Source: Octopus vulgaris
Taxonomy: Eukaryota
Assembly: GCA_951406725.2 (NCBI GenBank)
Contig: OX597833.1
Span: 37,944,001 to 38,008,000 of the forward strand
Direction of reading: 5' to 3'
DNA: 64,000 nt
In this document: piece after piece, positions 3,343-64,000 of the stretch
Layout of the letters: each line of letters opens with the position of its first letter
Position numbering within the stretch: position 1 is the stretch's first letter
Program-made: the position numbers and the translations under genes
Notes under the pieces: model-generated
What the model was told of the DNA's origin: nothing
The model's database searches: none
Seen by the model: the letters and a program-made list of their open reading frames with translations, nothing else

Positions 3343-3668
3343 GAGACCCCCTTCAGGTCACGACAAAGACCATGGGATTGCACCTAGAAAGTTACCCTCC
3401 CAGGCACAAGTCCAGGCAAGGTTGTTTATGGAAGGCTAGCAGTCGCCCATGCATACCGGCCTCCCCTCTCCACGCTACCAGTGTTATCCAAGGGAGAGGC
3501 AATGGCCGATACAGCTTGGCACCTCATTTCTACAGCTGAGTGAACTGGAGCAATGTGAAATAAAGTGTCTTGCTCAAGAACACAACACGCAGCCCAGTCC
3601 AGAATTTGAGCTCACAACCTCACGATCGTAAGCTCGACACTCTAACCACTGAGCCATGCGCCTTCACA
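3343..3668 (-). mobile_element. tRNA-derived SINE family F nested in a piggyBac-type MITE
   Basis: Head GGCGCATGGCTCAGTGGTTAGAG with GTGTTCTTGAGCAAGACACTT. A flanking duplication ATAGACAA lies at 3332 and 3673. Confidence 0.82.
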
Positions 3669-49464: not shown

Positions 49465-51900
49465 TCAGGATTAGGCCCCGAAACTGGTTTTATAAAACCG
49501 GTTAAAACTGAAACGTAAATCAGTAAAACCAAAACGGATTTTCCAAAACCCATTTTAATGCTTGCTGTTTCTTTTTTTTTTTTTTTCGCAAAACATTTCT
49601 CCATTTTTATCTTTTGAAGAAATATCGTTGAAACTGAACTAACTAAACTGTTGTCGGCCGCCTTTAGTTGAGAGTGCTGTCTGTTTCATTGAAACATATC
49701 GCAACATATCAATTCTCACCTTCTCTCCCCTTGGACCTTAGATCAGCACCTTCTCATTTCCTTCGCTAACCCCTGGCTGACTCTTTGAATTTGGAGGTAA
49801 CAGAGTTTATTCGTAGCAAGTCAAGGGGATGCTGTTAGTCTTCAGTCAGGTGATCTCTCCCGTTGAGCACATGTAATAACCAGTTCCAGATTCATTTCAA
49901 GGAAGTAACACTAACTAATTTTTTTCTTAATTATTTTCATTAGCCTGAGCATGATAAAAAGAAAATAGACTGTTTGAAATTTTTTCGATAGGAAAAACAA
50001 AGATGAAGCTCAATGCAATAAGTGTGATGAGATCATGAAGTCTTCTGGAGGATCTACTATGTCTCTGATCTTGCACTTGAAGAAAATTCATCAAATTGAC
50101 ATAAATCAAGATGCGAACCAGCCTCCTGTGAAAATGACAAGAACAATGGAACACTTTTTAACAAAGAAATCAATGGAAGAAAAAGTTTCGAAGTTAGCTG
50201 CTATGGATGGATTCTCTTTCAATTCAATCGCGAAAAGCGATTTTATACAGAGAAATCTTCATAGTCAGAGAGGCAAATATGATAAATTACAACCAGCATC
50301 TGCAAACAGAGTCAGGAATATGGTAATGAATTATTACATAACCAAGAAAGAATAACTTATTCATTATTTTGAAAAATAAGTAGCGCTGGGGATTCACTAC
50401 TCATTGACATTGGATGAATACACATCAATTCAAAATAAACAATATATGAACATAAATGTTCATGGGAAAGACAATCATTGGTCATTGGGTCTTATTGAGA
50501 TCCATGGCTCCCTCAATAGCAGGAGAAGAGAGCAATTTATGAGAGGACATCTTCATGAATTTGGATTGGATTTGGATATACACATTGTTGGCAGTACGAT
50601 GGATGGTGCTTCTATGATGGTGAAACTCGGAAAAGAAATAAGACCTAATCACCAACAATGTCTCACACATTGCATACATCTGTCTGTGATTGACATTCTC
50701 TATCAAAAAAATATTGAAAATATTGCCTCAACTGATGAGACTGATAAAAAAGTGAAGAGATTGCTATAACAGACTTAGTGATGATGAAGCTGACATAAGC
50801 CAACAAGACATACTTTTTCAAACAGATTTGGCTCACAAAAATGCTTGTTTTCCCCAGCTAAAACCTGAATTTAACAAAGTTTTAAACAAGGTAAGAAAAA
50901 TTTCAAAACTTTTCTGTAAATCTCCTACAAAAAAAGAAATTTTGCAAGATTTTGTATGAGCAAACTTTGATAACAGAGAATATAAACTTATACTGGATTG
51001 CAGAACTAGGTGGAATAGCACATTCCATATGATTGAGAAATTTTTGAAATTGAAAAGCTGCATTCCAAATGCTCTACGAGCAGTACTTTCCACAGATGCC
51101 GTAGCTGACGAAGAATGGAAATCTCCCAATTTACTATATGAAATTCTGCATCCAATAGAAATTATTTTGAAGGCTATTTGTGCTGATGATACGGATTACT
51201 GAAAGTGGAATATTCTATAGAATTTTTATTGAATAAACTTAATATCGTTGGCAAACCTTTGGCTCTAAATCTTCGTGAAAGACTTATGCATAGATATAAT
51301 AAGAGAAGAAATGTTGAAACCTTGATTCTCTTGAGGTATTTACATAACTCAAGGAAGTTTAAAAACAACATTTAAAGAAGTATGCTGAACAAACATATCA
51401 GAGATTATTTCCTGAACATGACGCCGAGAACACAACAGAATTATAAAAAGAAAATGAAATAAAAGGAACCTAAAAACAAGTGTTACTGTTGTCCCATCTA
51501 CTTACGAAGGTAATGAACTAATGTGCGAATACACAAGCACAATGAAGAAAATGAACGAAGAGCCCAAGATAGTAACAGATGGATTTGAAATCTCTAAAGA
51601 ATTTGAATATTTTGAAGCAACTTTGAACAAAAGTGAAAAGCTCAAGAAACTTTATAGAGCATTGCTTACAATTAAAGCAACTAGTGTCCAGTTGGAAAGA
51701 GCTTACAGGGATTTCAACACAAAAATTAGGACAAGTTTGTCAGGTAAAACACTGAACGCATTGTGTTTTTTAAAAGATTATTTTTGAAGGAAAGTGAATC
51801 ATCAAGCAAGTCAAGAAACTTGATTGATTCTCAAAAATACGACGACTTGGAAAAACATTGCATTCCTGATTAAATAAATATAATACCATTATTTTTTGTT
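49465..51900 (+). mobile_element. hAT DNA transposon body (boundaries approximate)
   Basis: The 5' region has repeated AAACC/GGTTT subterminal-like motifs ahead of the transposase. I found no matching right TIR. Confidence 0.6.
49970..51787 (+). pseudogene. hAT-superfamily transposase pseudogene with BED zinc finger
   Basis: Motifs: V*NFF...AQCNKC...GGSTMSLILHLKKIH (BED finger), LTLDEYTS, TMDGASMM, CLTHCIHL (CxxH), LDCRTRWNST, ATSVQLERAY (hAT C-terminal dimerisation). Multiple stops and frameshifts. Confidence 0.93.
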
Positions 51901-56499: not shown

Positions 56500-57838
56500 C
56501 AGGTGTTGCACAAAATAATGGAAACACCCAGCCTCATAGCATCATAATTTTGAAATATCTATAAAACTGTCAAAAGCTTGTTTATTTTTAATTTTTTTTA
56601 TTTATTATTAGTGTTGCTGAAGATATTTTGCTAAAATTGCTATTGTTTTTCAGATATCATCAGAAATAAAATTCATTAAAATGACAAATCTATCAAACTT
56701 TCAAAGAGGTCAAACTGTTGGTGCTTGTATGGTAGGTACTAGTGTAATGAAAACAGCTGAAATGTTTGGTGTATCAAGAAGTACTGTCTTGAAAGTAATG
56801 ACAGACTTTGAGAAAGAGGGAAGAAACCTCCTCGTCAAAACAAAACTCCGGAAGAAAACCAAAACTTTCAGATAGGGACTGTCAGACTCTTACACAAATT
56901 GTTAGAAAGGATCACAAAAGTACAGCTCCCAAAATTACTACAGAGCTTAATGACCACTTCGAGAAACCAGTTTCCACAAAAACTGTTCGCTAGGAGCTGT
57001 ACAAAGCCGGATTTCATGGGAGAACTGCAATCAGAAAACCATTACTTTCAAAAACAAACATTGCAAAGCATTTAGAGTGGAGTAAAAACCTACAGAATTG
57101 GTCCCTAGCACAGTGGAAGAATGTTATTTTCTTGGACGAGTCATCCTTTACCTTTCTTCCGACCACCAGCCAAGCATACATGTGGAGATAGCCAAAAGAA
57201 GCATTTGACCCAGACTGCTTTCCTCCAACTGTTAAACATGGAGGAGGATCTGTGATGATCTGTGGGGGCTATATCTTGGAAATCTGCCAGCCCAATGGTT
57301 TCCCTTCATGGTAGAATTATTAGTCAAGACTATTTAAGCATTTTATCTGATCAAATTCATCCTATGGTTGCAAAACTGTTTCCGGAGGAAAACCCAATCT
57401 TTCAGGATGATAATGCACCAATTCACACTGCTAAAGTTGATACTGAATGGAACGAAGAACATTCTAGTGAAGCTGAACATCTTATCTGGCCATCAGAGTT
57501 GCCAGATCTCAATATTATTGAACATTTATGGTGTATTTTAGAAAAACAAGTACGGACTCCATATCCTCAACCATCATCACTCAATATTATTGAACATTTA
57601 TGGTGTATTTTAGAAAAACAAGTACGGACTCCATATCCTCAACCATCATCACTACAAGAACTGGAGACTATTTTAGCTGAAGAATGGACAAAAATTATTT
57701 TGGAAACAATTCAAACTTTGTACGAGTCCGTACCTTGTAGAATTCAAGCAGCAATTACCGCCAAAGGTGGTCCTACCCCATATTAAAATAAATTTGTTTG
57801 AAATCTTAAGGTGTTTCCATTATTTTGTCCAACTTCTG
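56500..57838 (+). mobile_element. Tc1/mariner DNA transposon with DD36E spacing (Incomer-like), decayed
   Basis: 29-bp TIRs CAGGTGTTGCACAAAATAATGGAAACACC / GGTGTTTCCATTATTTTGTCCAACTTCTG match at 26/29, with TA on the right. It is inserted into the (TA/CA)n middle of a SINE. Confidence 0.92.
56681..57786 (+). pseudogene. Tc1-like transposase pseudogene
   Basis: Motifs: HTH region (TAEMFGVSRSTV), SGRKPKLS, FLDES, KHGGGSVM, FQDDNAPIH, WPSELPDLNIIEHLW, AKGGPTPY. It has frameshifts, stops and a 72-bp tandem duplication (57508-57651). Confidence 0.93.
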
Positions 57839-58421: not shown

Positions 58422-59135
58422 ATCTATGTATATGAAATTCTTTGTCTCTCTGTCTGTTCCCAATGCATTCTCAAACAGCTCAACCAAATCAAATCAAATT
58501 TTACATGGTAATAGTATCAGACCCCATGAGTGTAAACATGTAATTTTATTCATTTGGATTAAAACAATAGAACATTGGCAATGGTTCAGTATTGTGTGTT
58601 AAAAGTGAAAGAATAACATCTATATTGTAATGTGTATTATATTGTTTCACTTTTATTCTTTCAGTTTAATTCTAATGTGATAAGACTATTATATTGTTTC
58701 ACTTTTAACTCTAATTATATCCTAATGTGAACAACATTATGCATCAGCAACTTTCCATCTTTACAGTCACAACAGCGGAGTGATATATCAGTGTATGGGC
58801 ATTGATTGATATAACGAATGGGTATAGGTGAAACTCTTGACAAAAAAACAAGAGGTGACAGGCCCAAGGTATATAAAAATACACATTTACTGTTCAATTG
58901 CAGTTAATAATTATTGCAGCAGTTGCAAATGGAGTCTCAAGACAGAAGTGAGATGAGATTTTCCGAAGATCAGCAAATTCATGCTACAGCACGTCAGATG
59001 GAGTTTCAAGAAAGAAGGGAGCTGACACTTTCCCAAGATCAGCAAAGGCATATTGCAACACATCAAATGGAGTCTCAAGAAAGAAAGGAGATGAGACTTT
59101 CCTAAGATCAGCAAACACATGCTGCAGCACTTAAT
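58422..59135 (+). mobile_element. Helitron-like 5' remnant with 23-aa (69-bp) repeats
   Basis: Starts with a TCTATGTATATGAAATTC-type end. Three 69-bp units at 58926-59132 encode MESQ(D/E)R.EMR.S.DQQ.H...Q, resembling the STPR-type repeats in the N-terminus of some Helitron Rep/Hel proteins. Confidence 0.55.
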
Positions 59136-59740
59136 TCTTTATCACAAAACACCAAACCCTTTTAAATGCATCCACAACAAATGATACTGTCAGCAGGGCC
59201 TTAGAGTAACACCCACACAAATATTAAAAACAATATATTCAAAACAGTCACCTCAAGAATTTAATCAGAACAATTTCAATCACTACTATCAGCCACAAGG
59301 AGTCACTTTTAGGTCAACTGACCATTTAAGTGGATTCCATCAACATCCTGCTATTGTCATACCACTCCTGCATTCTTTTCTTCTTCTTCTCTGCCAGGCT
59401 TAAACAATCAAAAACAAGAATTCATATCAAACAGGCTGCTGCTAACCACCCAGAACCCACAAAAGTAAAAAAGAGAGACAGAAACAGGCAGAAAAAGAGG
59501 AAAATATCCCTTGCATTTGAAAACTATGGAAATACATTTTTTTTTTTTTATATTTCATTTAATTTTTCCATAATTTAATTGTTTTTCATACTGTCATCTA
59601 AGTTGAAAAAGTTGCTATGACTGAAACTGGTACTAAAATGTTCTTCATGCTAAAATTATTTTAGCATTTTCTACCTTGTCTTATTTTCCTTACACATATC
59701 AACTCGTATGTTCCTTTTAAATTTTTTACACACACACACA

Positions 59741-59785
<45 letters not shown>

Positions 59786-60032
59786 ATAAAATTAATTAAG
59801 GGTAGAAATTGATATTTATCAATTAAGACCAGTGGTCTAGCATATTAAAAAAGAATCCGAAGATTAAAATATTTATATATACCAATTAAGGACTGAACAC
59901 GAAAAGTGGACAGTCAACATGCTAGATATAGACGTCAAATCGTCATTCTCCACAAAAGATTATGTTCTCAGATCAAACTCAACACAAAACCTTAGCAATA
60001 AACAAGTGAAAAATATACGAAATAAAATAATT

Positions 60033-60100
60033 ACCCATGTACTAACTTAGTTTCAGCTGTTATTTTCCGCAAGGAAAACTGCAGCCATCATCAGCATGGT
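60033..60100 (-). ncRNA. Type I hammerhead ribozyme (inverted copy, intact)
   Basis: Plus strand ACCCATGTACTAACTTAGTTTCAGCTG...GCCATCATCAGCATGGT is the exact reverse complement of the motif. Confidence 0.86.
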
Positions 60101-60542
60101 CCGTTATAAATGTAATTTGCTGGACTAAATGCAAACACGATACCGAAATATCGCGTGCATGGAGTTCAGCCTATTACATTTGAATATATCTTTCAAATGC
60201 CTTTACTTTGGCGCGTTGAGACCCGAGAAAACTAGCCTGCAGCTAATAATTAGCAGCAGTTAATTTATCGGTTAGAGAACATTTATTTATATAAAATTAA
60301 TTAAGGGTAGAAATTGATATTTATCAATTAAGACCAGTGGTCTAGCATATTAAAAAAGAATCCGAAGATTAAAATATTTATATATACCAATTAAGGACTG
60401 AACACGAAAAGTGGACAGTCAACATGCTAGATATAGACGTCAAATCGTCATTCTCCACAAAAGATTATATTATGTTCTCAGATCAACCTCAACACAAAAC
60501 CTTAGCAATAAACAAGTGAAAAATATACGAAATAAAATAATT

Positions 60543-60612
60543 ACCCATGTACTAACTTAGTTTAGCAGCTGTTATTTTCCGCAAGGAAAACTGCAGCCAT
60601 CATCAGCATGGT
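60543..60612 (-). ncRNA. Hammerhead ribozyme copy with broken core (probably inactive)
   Basis: Plus strand reads TTTAGCAGCT instead of TTTCAGCT. This 2-nt insertion turns the minus-strand GAAA into GCTAAA. Confidence 0.7.
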
Positions 60613-60985
60613 CCGTTATAAATGTAATTTGCTGGACTAAATGCAAACACGATACCGAAATATCGCGTGCATGGAGTTCAGCCTATTACATTTGAATATA
60701 TCTTTCAAATGCCTTTACTTTGGCGCGTTGAGACCCGAGAAAACTAGCCTGCAGCTAATAATTAGCAGCAGTTAATTTATCGGTTAGAGAACATTTATTT
60801 ATATAAAATTAATTAAGGGTAGAAATTGATATTTATCAATTAAGACCAGTGGTCTAGCATATTAAAAAAGAATCCGAAGATTAAAATGTAATATATATAT
60901 ATTCAAATGTAATAGGCTGAACTCCATGCACGCGATATTTCGGTATCGTGTTTGCATTTAGTCCAGCAAATTACATTTATAATGG

Positions 60986-61053
60986 ACCATGCTGATGATG
61001 GCTGCAGTTTTCCTTGCGGAAAATAACAGCTGAAACTAAGTTAGTACATGGGT
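60986..61053 (+). ncRNA. Type I hammerhead ribozyme (unit 1)
   Basis: CCATG-[CTGATGA]-T-GGCTG-cag-TTTTCC-ttgc-GGAAAA-taa-CAGCT-[GAA]-ACTAA-g-TTAGT-[A]-CATGG. Stem I is CCATG/CATGG, stem II is extended, stem III is ACTAA/TTAGT. The GUA triplet predicts cleavage after 61046. Confidence 0.88.
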
Positions 61054-61490
61054 AATTATTTTATTTCGTATATTTTTCACTTGTTTATTGCTAAGGTTTT
61101 GTGTTGAGTTTGATCTGAGAACATAATCTTTTGTGGAGAATGACGATTTGACGTCTATATCTAGCATGTTGACTGTCCACTTTTCGTGTTCAGTCCTTAA
61201 TTGGTATATATAAATATTTTAATCTTCGGATTCTTTTTTAATATGCTAGACCACTGGTCTTAATTGATAAATATCAATTTCTACCCTTAATTAATTTTAT
61301 ATAAATAAATGTTCTCTAACCGATAAATTAACTGCTGCTAATTATTAGCTGCAGGCTAGTTTTCTCGGGTCTCAACGCGCCAAAGTAAAGGCATTTGAAA
61401 GATATATTCAAATGTAATAGGCTGAACTCCATGCACGCGATATTTCGGTATCGTGTTTGCATTTAGTCCAGCAAATTACATTTATAACGG

Positions 61491-61558
61491 ACCATGCTGA
61501 TGATGGCTGCAGTTTTCCTTGCGGAAAATAACAGCTGAAACTAAGTTAGTACATGGGT
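61491..61558 (+). ncRNA. Type I hammerhead ribozyme (unit 2)
   Basis: Same motif, 505 bp downstream of unit 1. Confidence 0.88.
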
Positions 61559-61995
61559 AATTATTTTATTTCGTATATTTTTCACTTGTTTATTGCTAAG
61601 GTTTTGTGTTGAGTTTGATCTGAGAACATAATCTTTTGTGGAGAATGACGATTTGACGTCTATATCTAGCATGTTGACTGTCCACTTTTCGTGTTCAGTC
61701 CTTAATTGGTATATATAAATATTTTAATCTTCGGATTCTTTTTTAATATGCTAGACCACTGGTCTTAATTGATAAATATCAATTTCTACCCTTAATTAAT
61801 TTTATATAAATAAATGTTCTCTAACCGATAAATTAACTGCTGCTAATTATTAGCTGCAGGCTAGTTTTCTCGGGTCTCAACGCGCCAAAGTAAAGGCATT
61901 TGAAAGATATATTCAAATGTAATAGGCTGAACTCCATGCACGCGATATTTCGGTATCGTGTTTGCATTTAGTCAAGCAAATTACATTTATAACGG

Positions 61996-62063
61996 ACCAT
62001 GCTGATGATGGCTGCAGTTTTCCTTGCGGAAAATAACAGCTGAAACTAAGTTAGTACATGGGT
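61996..62063 (+). ncRNA. Type I hammerhead ribozyme (unit 3)
   Basis: Same motif as unit 1. Confidence 0.88.
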
Positions 62064-62500
62064 AATTATTTTATTTCGTATATTTTTCACTTGTTTATTG
62101 CTAAGGTTTTGTGTTGAGTTTGATCTGAGAACATAATCTTTTGTGGAGAATGACGATTTGACGTCTATATCTAGCATGTTGACTGTCCACTTTTCGTGTT
62201 CAGTCCTTAATTGGTATATATAAATATTTTAATCTTCGGATTCTTTTTTAATATGCTAGACCACTGGTCTTAATTGATAAATATCAATTTCTACCCTTAA
62301 TTAATTTTATATAAATAAATGTTCTCTAACCGATAAATTAACTGCTGCTAATTATTAGCTGCAGGCTAGTTTTCTCGGGTCTCAACGCGCCAAAGTAAAG
62401 GCATTTGAAAGATATATTCAAATGTAATAGGCTGAACTCCATGCACGCGATATTTCGGTATCGTGTTTGCATTTAGTCCAGCAAATTACATTTATAACGG

Positions 62501-62568
62501 ACCATGCTGATGATGGCTGCAGTTTTCCTTGCGGAAAATAACAGCTGAAACTAAGTTAGTACATGGGT
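62501..62568 (+). ncRNA. Type I hammerhead ribozyme (unit 4)
   Basis: Same motif as unit 1. Confidence 0.88.
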
Positions 62569-63005
62569 AATTATTTTATTTCGTATATTTTTCACTTGTT
62601 TATTGCTAAGGTTTTGTGTTGAGTTTGATCTGAGAACATAATCTTTTGTGGAGAATGACGATTTGACGTCTATATCTAGCATGTTGACTGTCCACTTTTC
62701 GTGTTCAGTCCTTAATTGGTATATATAAATATTTTAATCTTCGGATTCTTTTTTAATATGCTAGACCACTGGTCTTAATTGATAAATATCAATTTCTACC
62801 CTTAATTAATTTTATATAAATAAATGTTCTCTAACCGATAAATTAACTGCTGCTAATTATTAGCTGCAGGCTAGTTTTCTCGGGTCTCAACGCGCCAAAG
62901 TAAAGGCATTTGAAAGATATATTCAAATGTAATAGGCTGAACTCCATGCACGCGATATTTCGGTATCGTGTTTGCATTTAGTCCAGCAAATTACATTTAT
63001 AACAG

Positions 63006-63073
63006 ACCATGCTGATGATGGCTGCAGTTTTCCTTGCGGAAAATAACAGCTGAAACTAAGTTAGTACATGGGT
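63006..63073 (+). ncRNA. Type I hammerhead ribozyme (unit 5)
   Basis: Same motif as unit 1. Confidence 0.88.
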
Positions 63074-63510
63074 AATTATTTTATTTCGTATATTTTTCAC
63101 TTGTTTATTGCTAAGGTTTTGTGTTGAGTTTGATCTGAGAACATAATCTTTTGTGGAGAATGACGATTTGACGTCTATATCTAGCATGTTGACTGTCCAC
63201 TTTTCGTGTTCAGTCCTTAATTGGTATATATAAATATTTTAATCTTCGGATTCTTTTTTAATATGCTAGACCACTGGTCTTAATTGATAAATATCAATTT
63301 CTACCCTTAATTAATTTTATATAAATAAATGTTCTCTAACCGATAAATTAACTGCTGCTAATTATTAGCTGCAGGCTAGTTTTCTCGGGTCTCAACGCGC
63401 CAAAGTAAAGGCATTTGAAAGATATATTCAAATGTAATAGGCTGAACTCCATGCACGCGATATTTCAGTATCGTGTTTGCATTTAGTCCAGCAAATTACA
63501 TTTATAACGG

Positions 63511-63578
63511 ACCATGCTGATGATGGCTGCAGTTTTCCTTGCGGAAAATAACAGCTGAAACTAAGTTAGTACATGAGT
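63511..63578 (+). ncRNA. Type I hammerhead ribozyme (unit 6, weakened stem I)
   Basis: Core is intact. The 3' strand of stem I reads CATGAG instead of CATGGG. Confidence 0.8.
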
Positions 63579-64000
63579 AATTATTTTATTTCGTATATTT
63601 TTCACTTGTTTATTGCTAAGGTTTTGTGTTGAGTTTGATCTGAGAACATAATCTTTTGTGGAGAATGACGATTTGACGTCTATATCTAGCATGTTGACTG
63701 TCCACTTTTCGTGTTCAGTCCTTAATTGGTATATATAAATATTTTAATCTTCGGATTCTTTTTTAATATGCTAGACCACTGGTCTTAATTGATAAATATC
63801 AATTTCTACCCTTAATTAATTTTATATAAATAAATGTTCTCTAACCGATAAATTAACTGCTGCTAATTATTAGCTGCAGGCTAGTTTTCTCGGGTCTTAA
63901 CGCGCCAAAGTAAAGGCATTTGAAAGATATATTCAAATGTAATAGGCTGAACTCCATGCACGCGATATTTCGGTATCGTGTTTGAATTTAGTCCAGCAAA

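Follow-up and report, generated by a model that had tools for sequence, protein, structure and literature searches.

A very young 505-base repeat with a predicted hammerhead in Octopus vulgaris, inserted with a Penelope-type footprint

The right-hand end of a 64,000-nucleotide stretch of the Octopus vulgaris genome (contig OX597833.1, positions 37,944,001 to 38,008,000; hereafter the window) carries a 505-base repeat with a predicted hammerhead ribozyme in its units. The locus raises the question of how such a repeat came to be inserted, by what enzyme and from what template. A sequence-only reading had taken it for a direct tandem array placed there by a recent retro-insertion. Judged from its sequence, the insertion is a very young member of a widespread family of non-coding 505-base repeats with a predicted hammerhead, and the class of element is already known, the animal non-LTR (long terminal repeat) retrozyme. 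Its two arms are inverted with respect to each other, and their outer ends lie at two fixed sites. These features, which that reading missed, are the most informative ones. We think it probable that this is a young insertion of a retrozyme with predicted self-cutting, and that a borrowed Penelope-like enzyme wrote it into (TA)n, priming at two fixed sites of the RNA and, for the long arrays, using a circular monomer as template.

The features of the locus are summarized in Table 1. Unit positions are numbered from window position 61311, and the predicted cut falls after unit position 241. Lag matching confirmed the period, with 99.6% match at a lag of 505 compared with 26-31% at the other lags in the range 495-514. 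As Tandem Repeats Finder handles periods of at most 500, it made no call for the array. The repeat stretch has a GC content of 33%. Its longest stop-to-stop frame is 60 amino acids (aa), antisense and found once per unit, so it is non-coding as claimed, with no frame above 60 aa. The repeat proposed earlier is therefore real, but it is not a single direct array: two arms lie head to head. The minus-strand arm includes one unit of 512 bases, and the plus-strand arm ends 248 bases beyond the window. The arms are strongly unequal, at 3351 and 1117 bases, and both outer ends run into (TA)n.

Table 1. Features of the insertion in window coordinates; sites A and B are the two fixed outer ends
Feature	Position	Strand	Remarks
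Left target, (TA)n run	59740..59782		13-base repeat of end-B letters (59769-59782), probably an abortive start of copying
Arm B, 2.2 units	59783..60899	-	3' end outward at site B (unit position ~496, window ~59785); inner end at unit position 400-411, i.e. at site A
93-base 'tail' between site A and site B	59785..59878	-	At outer end of arm B only
Type I hammerhead motif, intact	60035..60099	-	Predicted cut between 60040 and 60039
Type I hammerhead motif, broken	60545..60611	-	2-base insertion in GAAA
9-base patch at head-to-head junction of arms	60888..60896
Arm A, 6.6 units	60897..64000 and beyond	+	Starts at unit position 92; reaches G000:C20:38008247, ending at site A (unit position ~403) in (TA)n
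Type I hammerhead motif, intact	60987..61051	+	Predicted cut 3' of 61046; recurs at +505, +1010, +1515, +2020
Predicted 505-base monomer between two cuts	61047..61551	+
Sixth plus-strand motif	63512..63576	+	Core intact; stem I down to 4 pairs via G>A at 63576

The repeat is dispersed through the genome. A search with a single unit gave 218 matches in the best 38 of 1705 candidate places. Exact genome-wide counts were 404 for the young motif, 2358 for the tail motif and 764 for the end-A junction, and zero for each of the controls. The copies are spread over many contigs and include subfamilies at 93-94% and 73-81% identity, with units of 502-535 bases. In the young set, single-unit changes amount to 0.11% in 73,239 bases (38 loci). 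Together with the Penelope-type footprint described below, this bears out a recent retro-insertion, and the 764 junctions, with 932 genomic matches to a family-level motif pattern (0 for the reversed control), bear out the dispersed copies that had been anticipated. Some loci have homopolymer slips typical of long-read assemblies. At L108:441-2050 an insertion of a 90-92% subfamily lies inside the TA tail of an older relative of 70-78% identity, and that older, two-armed copy recurs nearly unchanged at four other loci (L111-L114), apparently moved as a block.

The hammerhead count reported earlier stands, with eight motifs in the window of which seven are intact, and a ninth lies just past it. 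The GUA cleavage triplet and the position of the predicted cut also agree with that report. A three-helix descriptor is passed by eight of the nine motifs and in seven consecutive plus-strand units, compared with one in 3000 shuffled units and one match in the remaining 59.7 kb of the window. The core is non-canonical, having an extra U after A9 and G-U as the first pair of stem II. Viroid hammerheads tolerate GUA sites and an extra base after A9 (PMC1636495). In other subfamilies stem II starts with G-C or U-U at its base, some have the extra base after A9, and the longer stem II carries a conserved CA/AA internal loop. The Rfam search by which the fold was to have been confirmed found no hammerhead match at the gathering score, nor at E up to 10. 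The accessible text of the retrozyme papers identifies hammerheads by descriptor, and an Rfam match is not among the criteria given there.

Covariation was assessed in 24 hand-picked variants. Their selection relied on a pattern in which the core is fixed, so that invariance of the core is no evidence, and the rows are related by descent, so that their changes are not independent events. Within this set 95.1% of cells are paired, and two-sided changes occur in 10 of the 21 pairs, in all three helices. The covariation score was reached by 0/500 shuffles, and slid controls paired at 32-41%. All three helices are retained in relatives down to ~75% identity. The probability of stem III is ~2% in this unit and ranges from 0 to 0.54 across five relatives. 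The descriptor and the covariation thus uphold the type I fold that had been proposed, but the core departs from the canonical form and the active fold is not that of minimum energy; self-cleavage of the unit RNA is a prediction. Folded as a circle, the monomer that follows the one in Table 1 is 66% paired (z = -5.5), and 0/60 shuffles were as stable. Short hammerhead-like cores at L098:1501 and L106:1501 are unrelated and lie outside this family.

The outer ends of the arms fall at two fixed sites, A (~403) and B (~496), 93 bases apart, and in the unit both are followed by TATA letters that match the target. Twenty-seven of the 38 long loci are two-armed, with A paired with B in 27/27, and 11 are one-armed. 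A second sample followed map order and comprised 69 insertions ending at A (from 70 matches, after removal of one duplicate), five loci being common to both samples. Here the partner was B in 53/53 resolved two-armed copies, and A in none. The remaining 16/69 consist of 10 without a second arm found, three running off the locus, two unresolved and one in which arm A runs off. An apparent A/A copy (L208/L209) turned out to be a B arm with an inner A site. Both ends are retained in subfamilies at 70-80% identity. TA runs lie at the outer ends in the mapped loci, and inside such runs a target-site duplication is undefinable. The junctions have an overlap of 0-5 bases in 9/27 cases, the rest being confounded by subfamily variants in the exact-match test. 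Near-perfect palindromes of 67-121 bp are frequent among the short copies of a sample that was chosen for absence of a hammerhead match and is informative on junction shape only.

This is the arrangement known from Penelope, where an inverted 5'-truncated copy is found with a tail at one end and a (TA)n target (PMC8557442). The Penelope tail corresponds to the segment that separates two starts of reverse transcription; in vitro, both strands are cut and extended by a Penelope-like protein whose two start sites are internal and flank the tail (PMC11167929). Judged by arrangement, the A/B two-arm layout is the Penelope 'tail plus inverted copy' footprint. Mobilization of the retrozyme by a Penelope-type enzyme is very probable, and two primed first strands are likely to have made the two arms.

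The unit was also sought in public sequencing runs. None of the runs holding it is recorded as RNA, and 14 are guessed to be RNA. It is present in four contig sets of the guessed-RNA kind. Three of these have the return joint at 505 bases, and the recurrence of loose ends at A and at B confirms the two ends in other samples, although such contigs can tell neither circle from tandem nor RNA from DNA. A higher contig depth over the 3' part of the unit was not used, since contig depth cannot rank parts.

What was the template? Haplotypes are identical between the two arms at 22/26 loci, whereas shuffling of arms gives an expected 5.2 and a maximum of 12 in 5000; six error-rich or stray segments were dropped, and one locus with a 22-base arm is uninformative. 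Six locus-private variants fill all units of both arms and six more fill the one informative arm, while 69 variants are confined to one unit. Such fixation of new variants across whole insertions favors a putative one-unit circle. In long arms the surroundings of the cut site are unchanged in 163/163 units that span it, and inner ends fall at the cut site in 0/65 arms of a sample biased to long arrays, the longest of which are 3.3-3.6 kb. Clean crossing of the cut sites implies that the template of the long arms was a circle or an uncut multimer. On balance we prefer a circular template for the multimers, and the rolling-circle copying suggested by the sequence-only reading gains indirect support from the shared variants and the clean crossing. 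An RNA-editing bias in the multi-unit variants was unsupported (13/31 vs 19/84, p = 0.06).

Short arms behave differently from long ones. In the map-order sample 42/69 A arms and 41/56 partner arms stop before the cut site, yet the stopping rate beyond the cut predicts only 32% and 47% respectively (p = 1e-6 and 6e-5). Shortness is correlated between the two arms of one insertion (p = 1e-5). An origin of the short copies from a cut linear template is suggested. Of the 21 pairs that include a long arm, four have their two arms stopping at one and the same unit position (p = 0.005). In two of the four, L212 and L213, arm A is longer by exactly one unit, as though an enzyme had gone round a circle and run into its partner.

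We propose the following mechanism. Read-through transcription of the repeat would provide an RNA that cleaves itself and is then ligated to a circle. A dimeric protein with reverse transcriptase (RT) and GIY-YIG domains would cut both strands of (TA)n. Each target 3' end would pair with the TATA letters at A or B and prime one first-strand complementary DNA (cDNA), and the two cDNAs would be joined head to head, each filling in the other. Short copies would come from the cut linear monomer or from early stalling, and long copies from laps round the circle. In its boldest form, two RTs of one Penelope-like dimer would circle one ribozyme-made RNA from two fixed starts, each primed by one cut end, without a separate second-strand step. 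We put this forward tentatively, judging its chances slightly short of even. In L1 twin priming both target ends likewise prime cDNA, giving an inverted 5' part, and the second primer lands variably and stops the first. Here, by contrast, both starts are fixed and both arms may be multimers.

A number of observations weigh against this reading. The predicted active fold lies 2 kcal/mol above the minimum, whose fold hides the core, and eight of nine Xenopus retrozyme dimers were uncleaved in vitro (bioRxiv 10.64898/2026.07.22.740005). The main template of the anole enzyme is uncut RNA (PMC11167929). Comparison of the unit with 45 GIY-YIG loci, by blastn and with a profile of 15 units, gave no similarity (best E = 3.2). 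Arms as unequal as these require that one of the enzymes detached. The 38 long loci are the best full-unit matches and form a sample biased to long arrays, and polishing can homogenize tandem arrays in an assembly. The ends of short arms cluster at unit 280-345 and not at the cut (242), where neither sample has any run-off; stops at 280-345 number 54/107 on the first pass vs 6/19 on a later pass, and a sequence stall in this region may be responsible. Lastly, in 4/26 loci one variant is specific to a single arm, and 12 variants occupy some units without filling the rest; one monomer circle fails to account for this. Seven part-filling variants lie in blocks of neighboring units and three recur every two or four units. 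At seven loci (L017, L022, L027, L029, L033, L035 and L049) all 10 variants that fill part of one arm are absent from the outermost, first-copied, unit. At L033 and L049 a variant alternates unit by unit. Such patterns could point to a template of two units, a switch between templates, duplication at a later time or polishing.

Some of these points are equally at home with an uncut template. The same two-ended Penelope-type integration might have copied an uncut linear read-through multimer, the arrays being regrown in DNA by unequal exchange with no circle. Uncut RNA accounts for clean crossing of the cut sites just as well, agrees with the weakness of the predicted fold and the preference of the anole enzyme, and is in keeping with variants in neighboring blocks or spaced two or four units; local amplification is also the model of bioRxiv 10.64898/2026.07.22.740005. 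Nevertheless, variants present in every unit of both arms, alongside 69 single-unit changes that have not spread, would need a one-unit bottleneck followed by regrowth at insertion. The lengths of the 65 arms show no satellite-like tail, and the hammerhead is retained across many subfamilies. We therefore regard the uncut multimer as an unlikely template, but one to be taken seriously.

The second arm could also have a different origin. Self-priming has been proposed for Penelope palindromes (PMC3846280), and a single first-strand cDNA that folds back and primes itself would yield an inverted arm. Shared variants would follow directly, short copies are often near-perfect palindromes, and the inner ends nearly coincide (within 8 bases) in 18/35 short-short pairs. 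But a short A-primed strand should then give A/A copies, and 0/53 were seen. In pairs with a long arm the inner ends are apart in 17/21, by 18-243 bases, and the longer arm may be either one. Fold-back is accordingly improbable.

If a Penelope-like enzyme was borrowed by the retrozyme, where might it be encoded? The window contains no match to a Penelope-like protein. Of 6136 GIY-YIG candidates in the genome, 150 were scored. A young Penelope-like family (L076-L089 and L095, e.g. L079:744-6010) has many intact 781-aa frames with RT and GIY-YIG, a frame upstream of these (at most 479 aa, no Pfam match), and a terminal repeat of ~510 bases. It has a two-arm layout like that of the retrozyme, with a tail of 40 bases (three two-armed among 16 copies). 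Two more families (L090, L093; L092, L094) have tails of ~33-35 bases, and in the former, reading by eye found a minimal motif resembling a hammerhead, whose stem II has U-U at its base. The three families share no detectable sequence with the unit. The sequence-only reading had suggested looking for copies that adjoin RT/GIY-YIG open reading frames (ORFs); none of the loci searched has such a frame joined to the unit. Penelope-like elements do reside in the same genome.

The units might instead be solo terminal repeats (pseudo-LTRs, pLTRs) shed by an autonomous Penelope-like element, and not an independently replicating retrozyme. All the integration features are Penelope-like, and with 150 of the 6136 GIY-YIG candidates scored, a parent may lie among the others. 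However, Penelope-like coding remains occur within 4 kb upstream in 0/40 tail-bearing loci, and those at 50 other retrozyme loci are old and unjoined to the unit. In the mapped loci the arms continue into more units, never into coding sequence. This makes a pLTR origin very improbable. That the array is a local satellite, or an artefact of assembly, whose motif arose by chance can be dismissed despite the silence of Rfam and the homopolymer slips, 'local' and 'chance' being already refuted by copies on many contigs, zero control matches and covarying helices, and by independent public runs that hold the return joint and the loose ends.

The assignment to the animal non-LTR retrozymes made earlier is sustained: the repeat is tandem, non-coding, low in GC and dispersed, with a hammerhead in each unit. 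Metazoan retrozymes of coral, mussel and axolotl also have non-coding tandem units with one type I hammerhead each (PMC7229834, bioRxiv 10.64898/2026.07.22.740005), and are alike in low GC (<50%), dispersal, a self-paired predicted circle and co-resident Penelope-like elements. With regard to the absence of an LTR, primer-binding site or polypurine tract, the layout is tandem, and no search was aimed at the latter two. The unit was thought longer than most; 505 is above 170-400 (PMC7229834), but within 51-972 (bioRxiv 10.64898/2026.07.22.740005). Stem II is longer here than in those retrozymes and has the conserved internal loop. In Xenopus a homologous pLTR exists for 24/57 retrozyme families (bioRxiv 10.64898/2026.07.22.740005), whereas none was found here among the 45 GIY-YIG loci. 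The retrozyme literature puts forward Penelope-like elements and a circular template. Its accessible parts give no insertion footprint, and arms inverted to each other, their ends fixed, paired and set in (TA)n, are undescribed there for retrozymes (PMC7229834, where 'inverted' occurs 0 times; bioRxiv 10.64898/2026.07.22.740005; PMC7761336). A literature search whose reach excluded supplements and most subscription journals found no paper on an octopus or cephalopod retrozyme.

Penelope/Poseidon, Neptune and Naiad (PMC8557442, PMC11167929, PMC3846280) share with the octopus repeat the inverted 5'-truncated arm, the tail at one end, the (TA)n target, palindromic junctions and internal starts. 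The repeat has no ORF, whereas an autonomous element encodes RT plus GIY-YIG; its tail has 93 rather than 30-40 bases, and one arm can contain as many as seven full units. The anole enzyme initiates at a site without homology (PMC11167929), whereas here the starts carry the target-matching TATA letters. Chlamys elements such as MRC1 (PMC8557442) are similar as non-autonomous Penelope-like derivatives with multicopy head-to-tail insertions.

Other features of the window lie to the left of the insertion. Just beside it, a 69-base repeat (an in-frame length) is present in three copies at 80% identity at 58926-59130. A Tc1/mariner-type DDE transposase fragment at 57259-57786 has an exact 72-base internal duplication at 57508-57653, and a broken hAT-type transposon at 49978-51787 retains BED finger and C-terminal dimerization fragments.

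The literature treats three matters as open: which enzyme moves animal retrozymes, whether their circles serve as template, and how the tail and inverted arm of Penelope-like elements arise (PMC7229834, PMC7761336, PMC8557442, PMC11167929). With hundreds of near-identical insertions, whose ends are strictly paired and whose arms share variants, these questions become counts, and the 505-base unit provides a short, defined substrate for the existing Penelope in vitro assay. If two RTs of one dimer do circle a single RNA, one mechanism would cover the Penelope tail, the inverted arm and the retrozyme multimers, with a 505-base template on which to test it.

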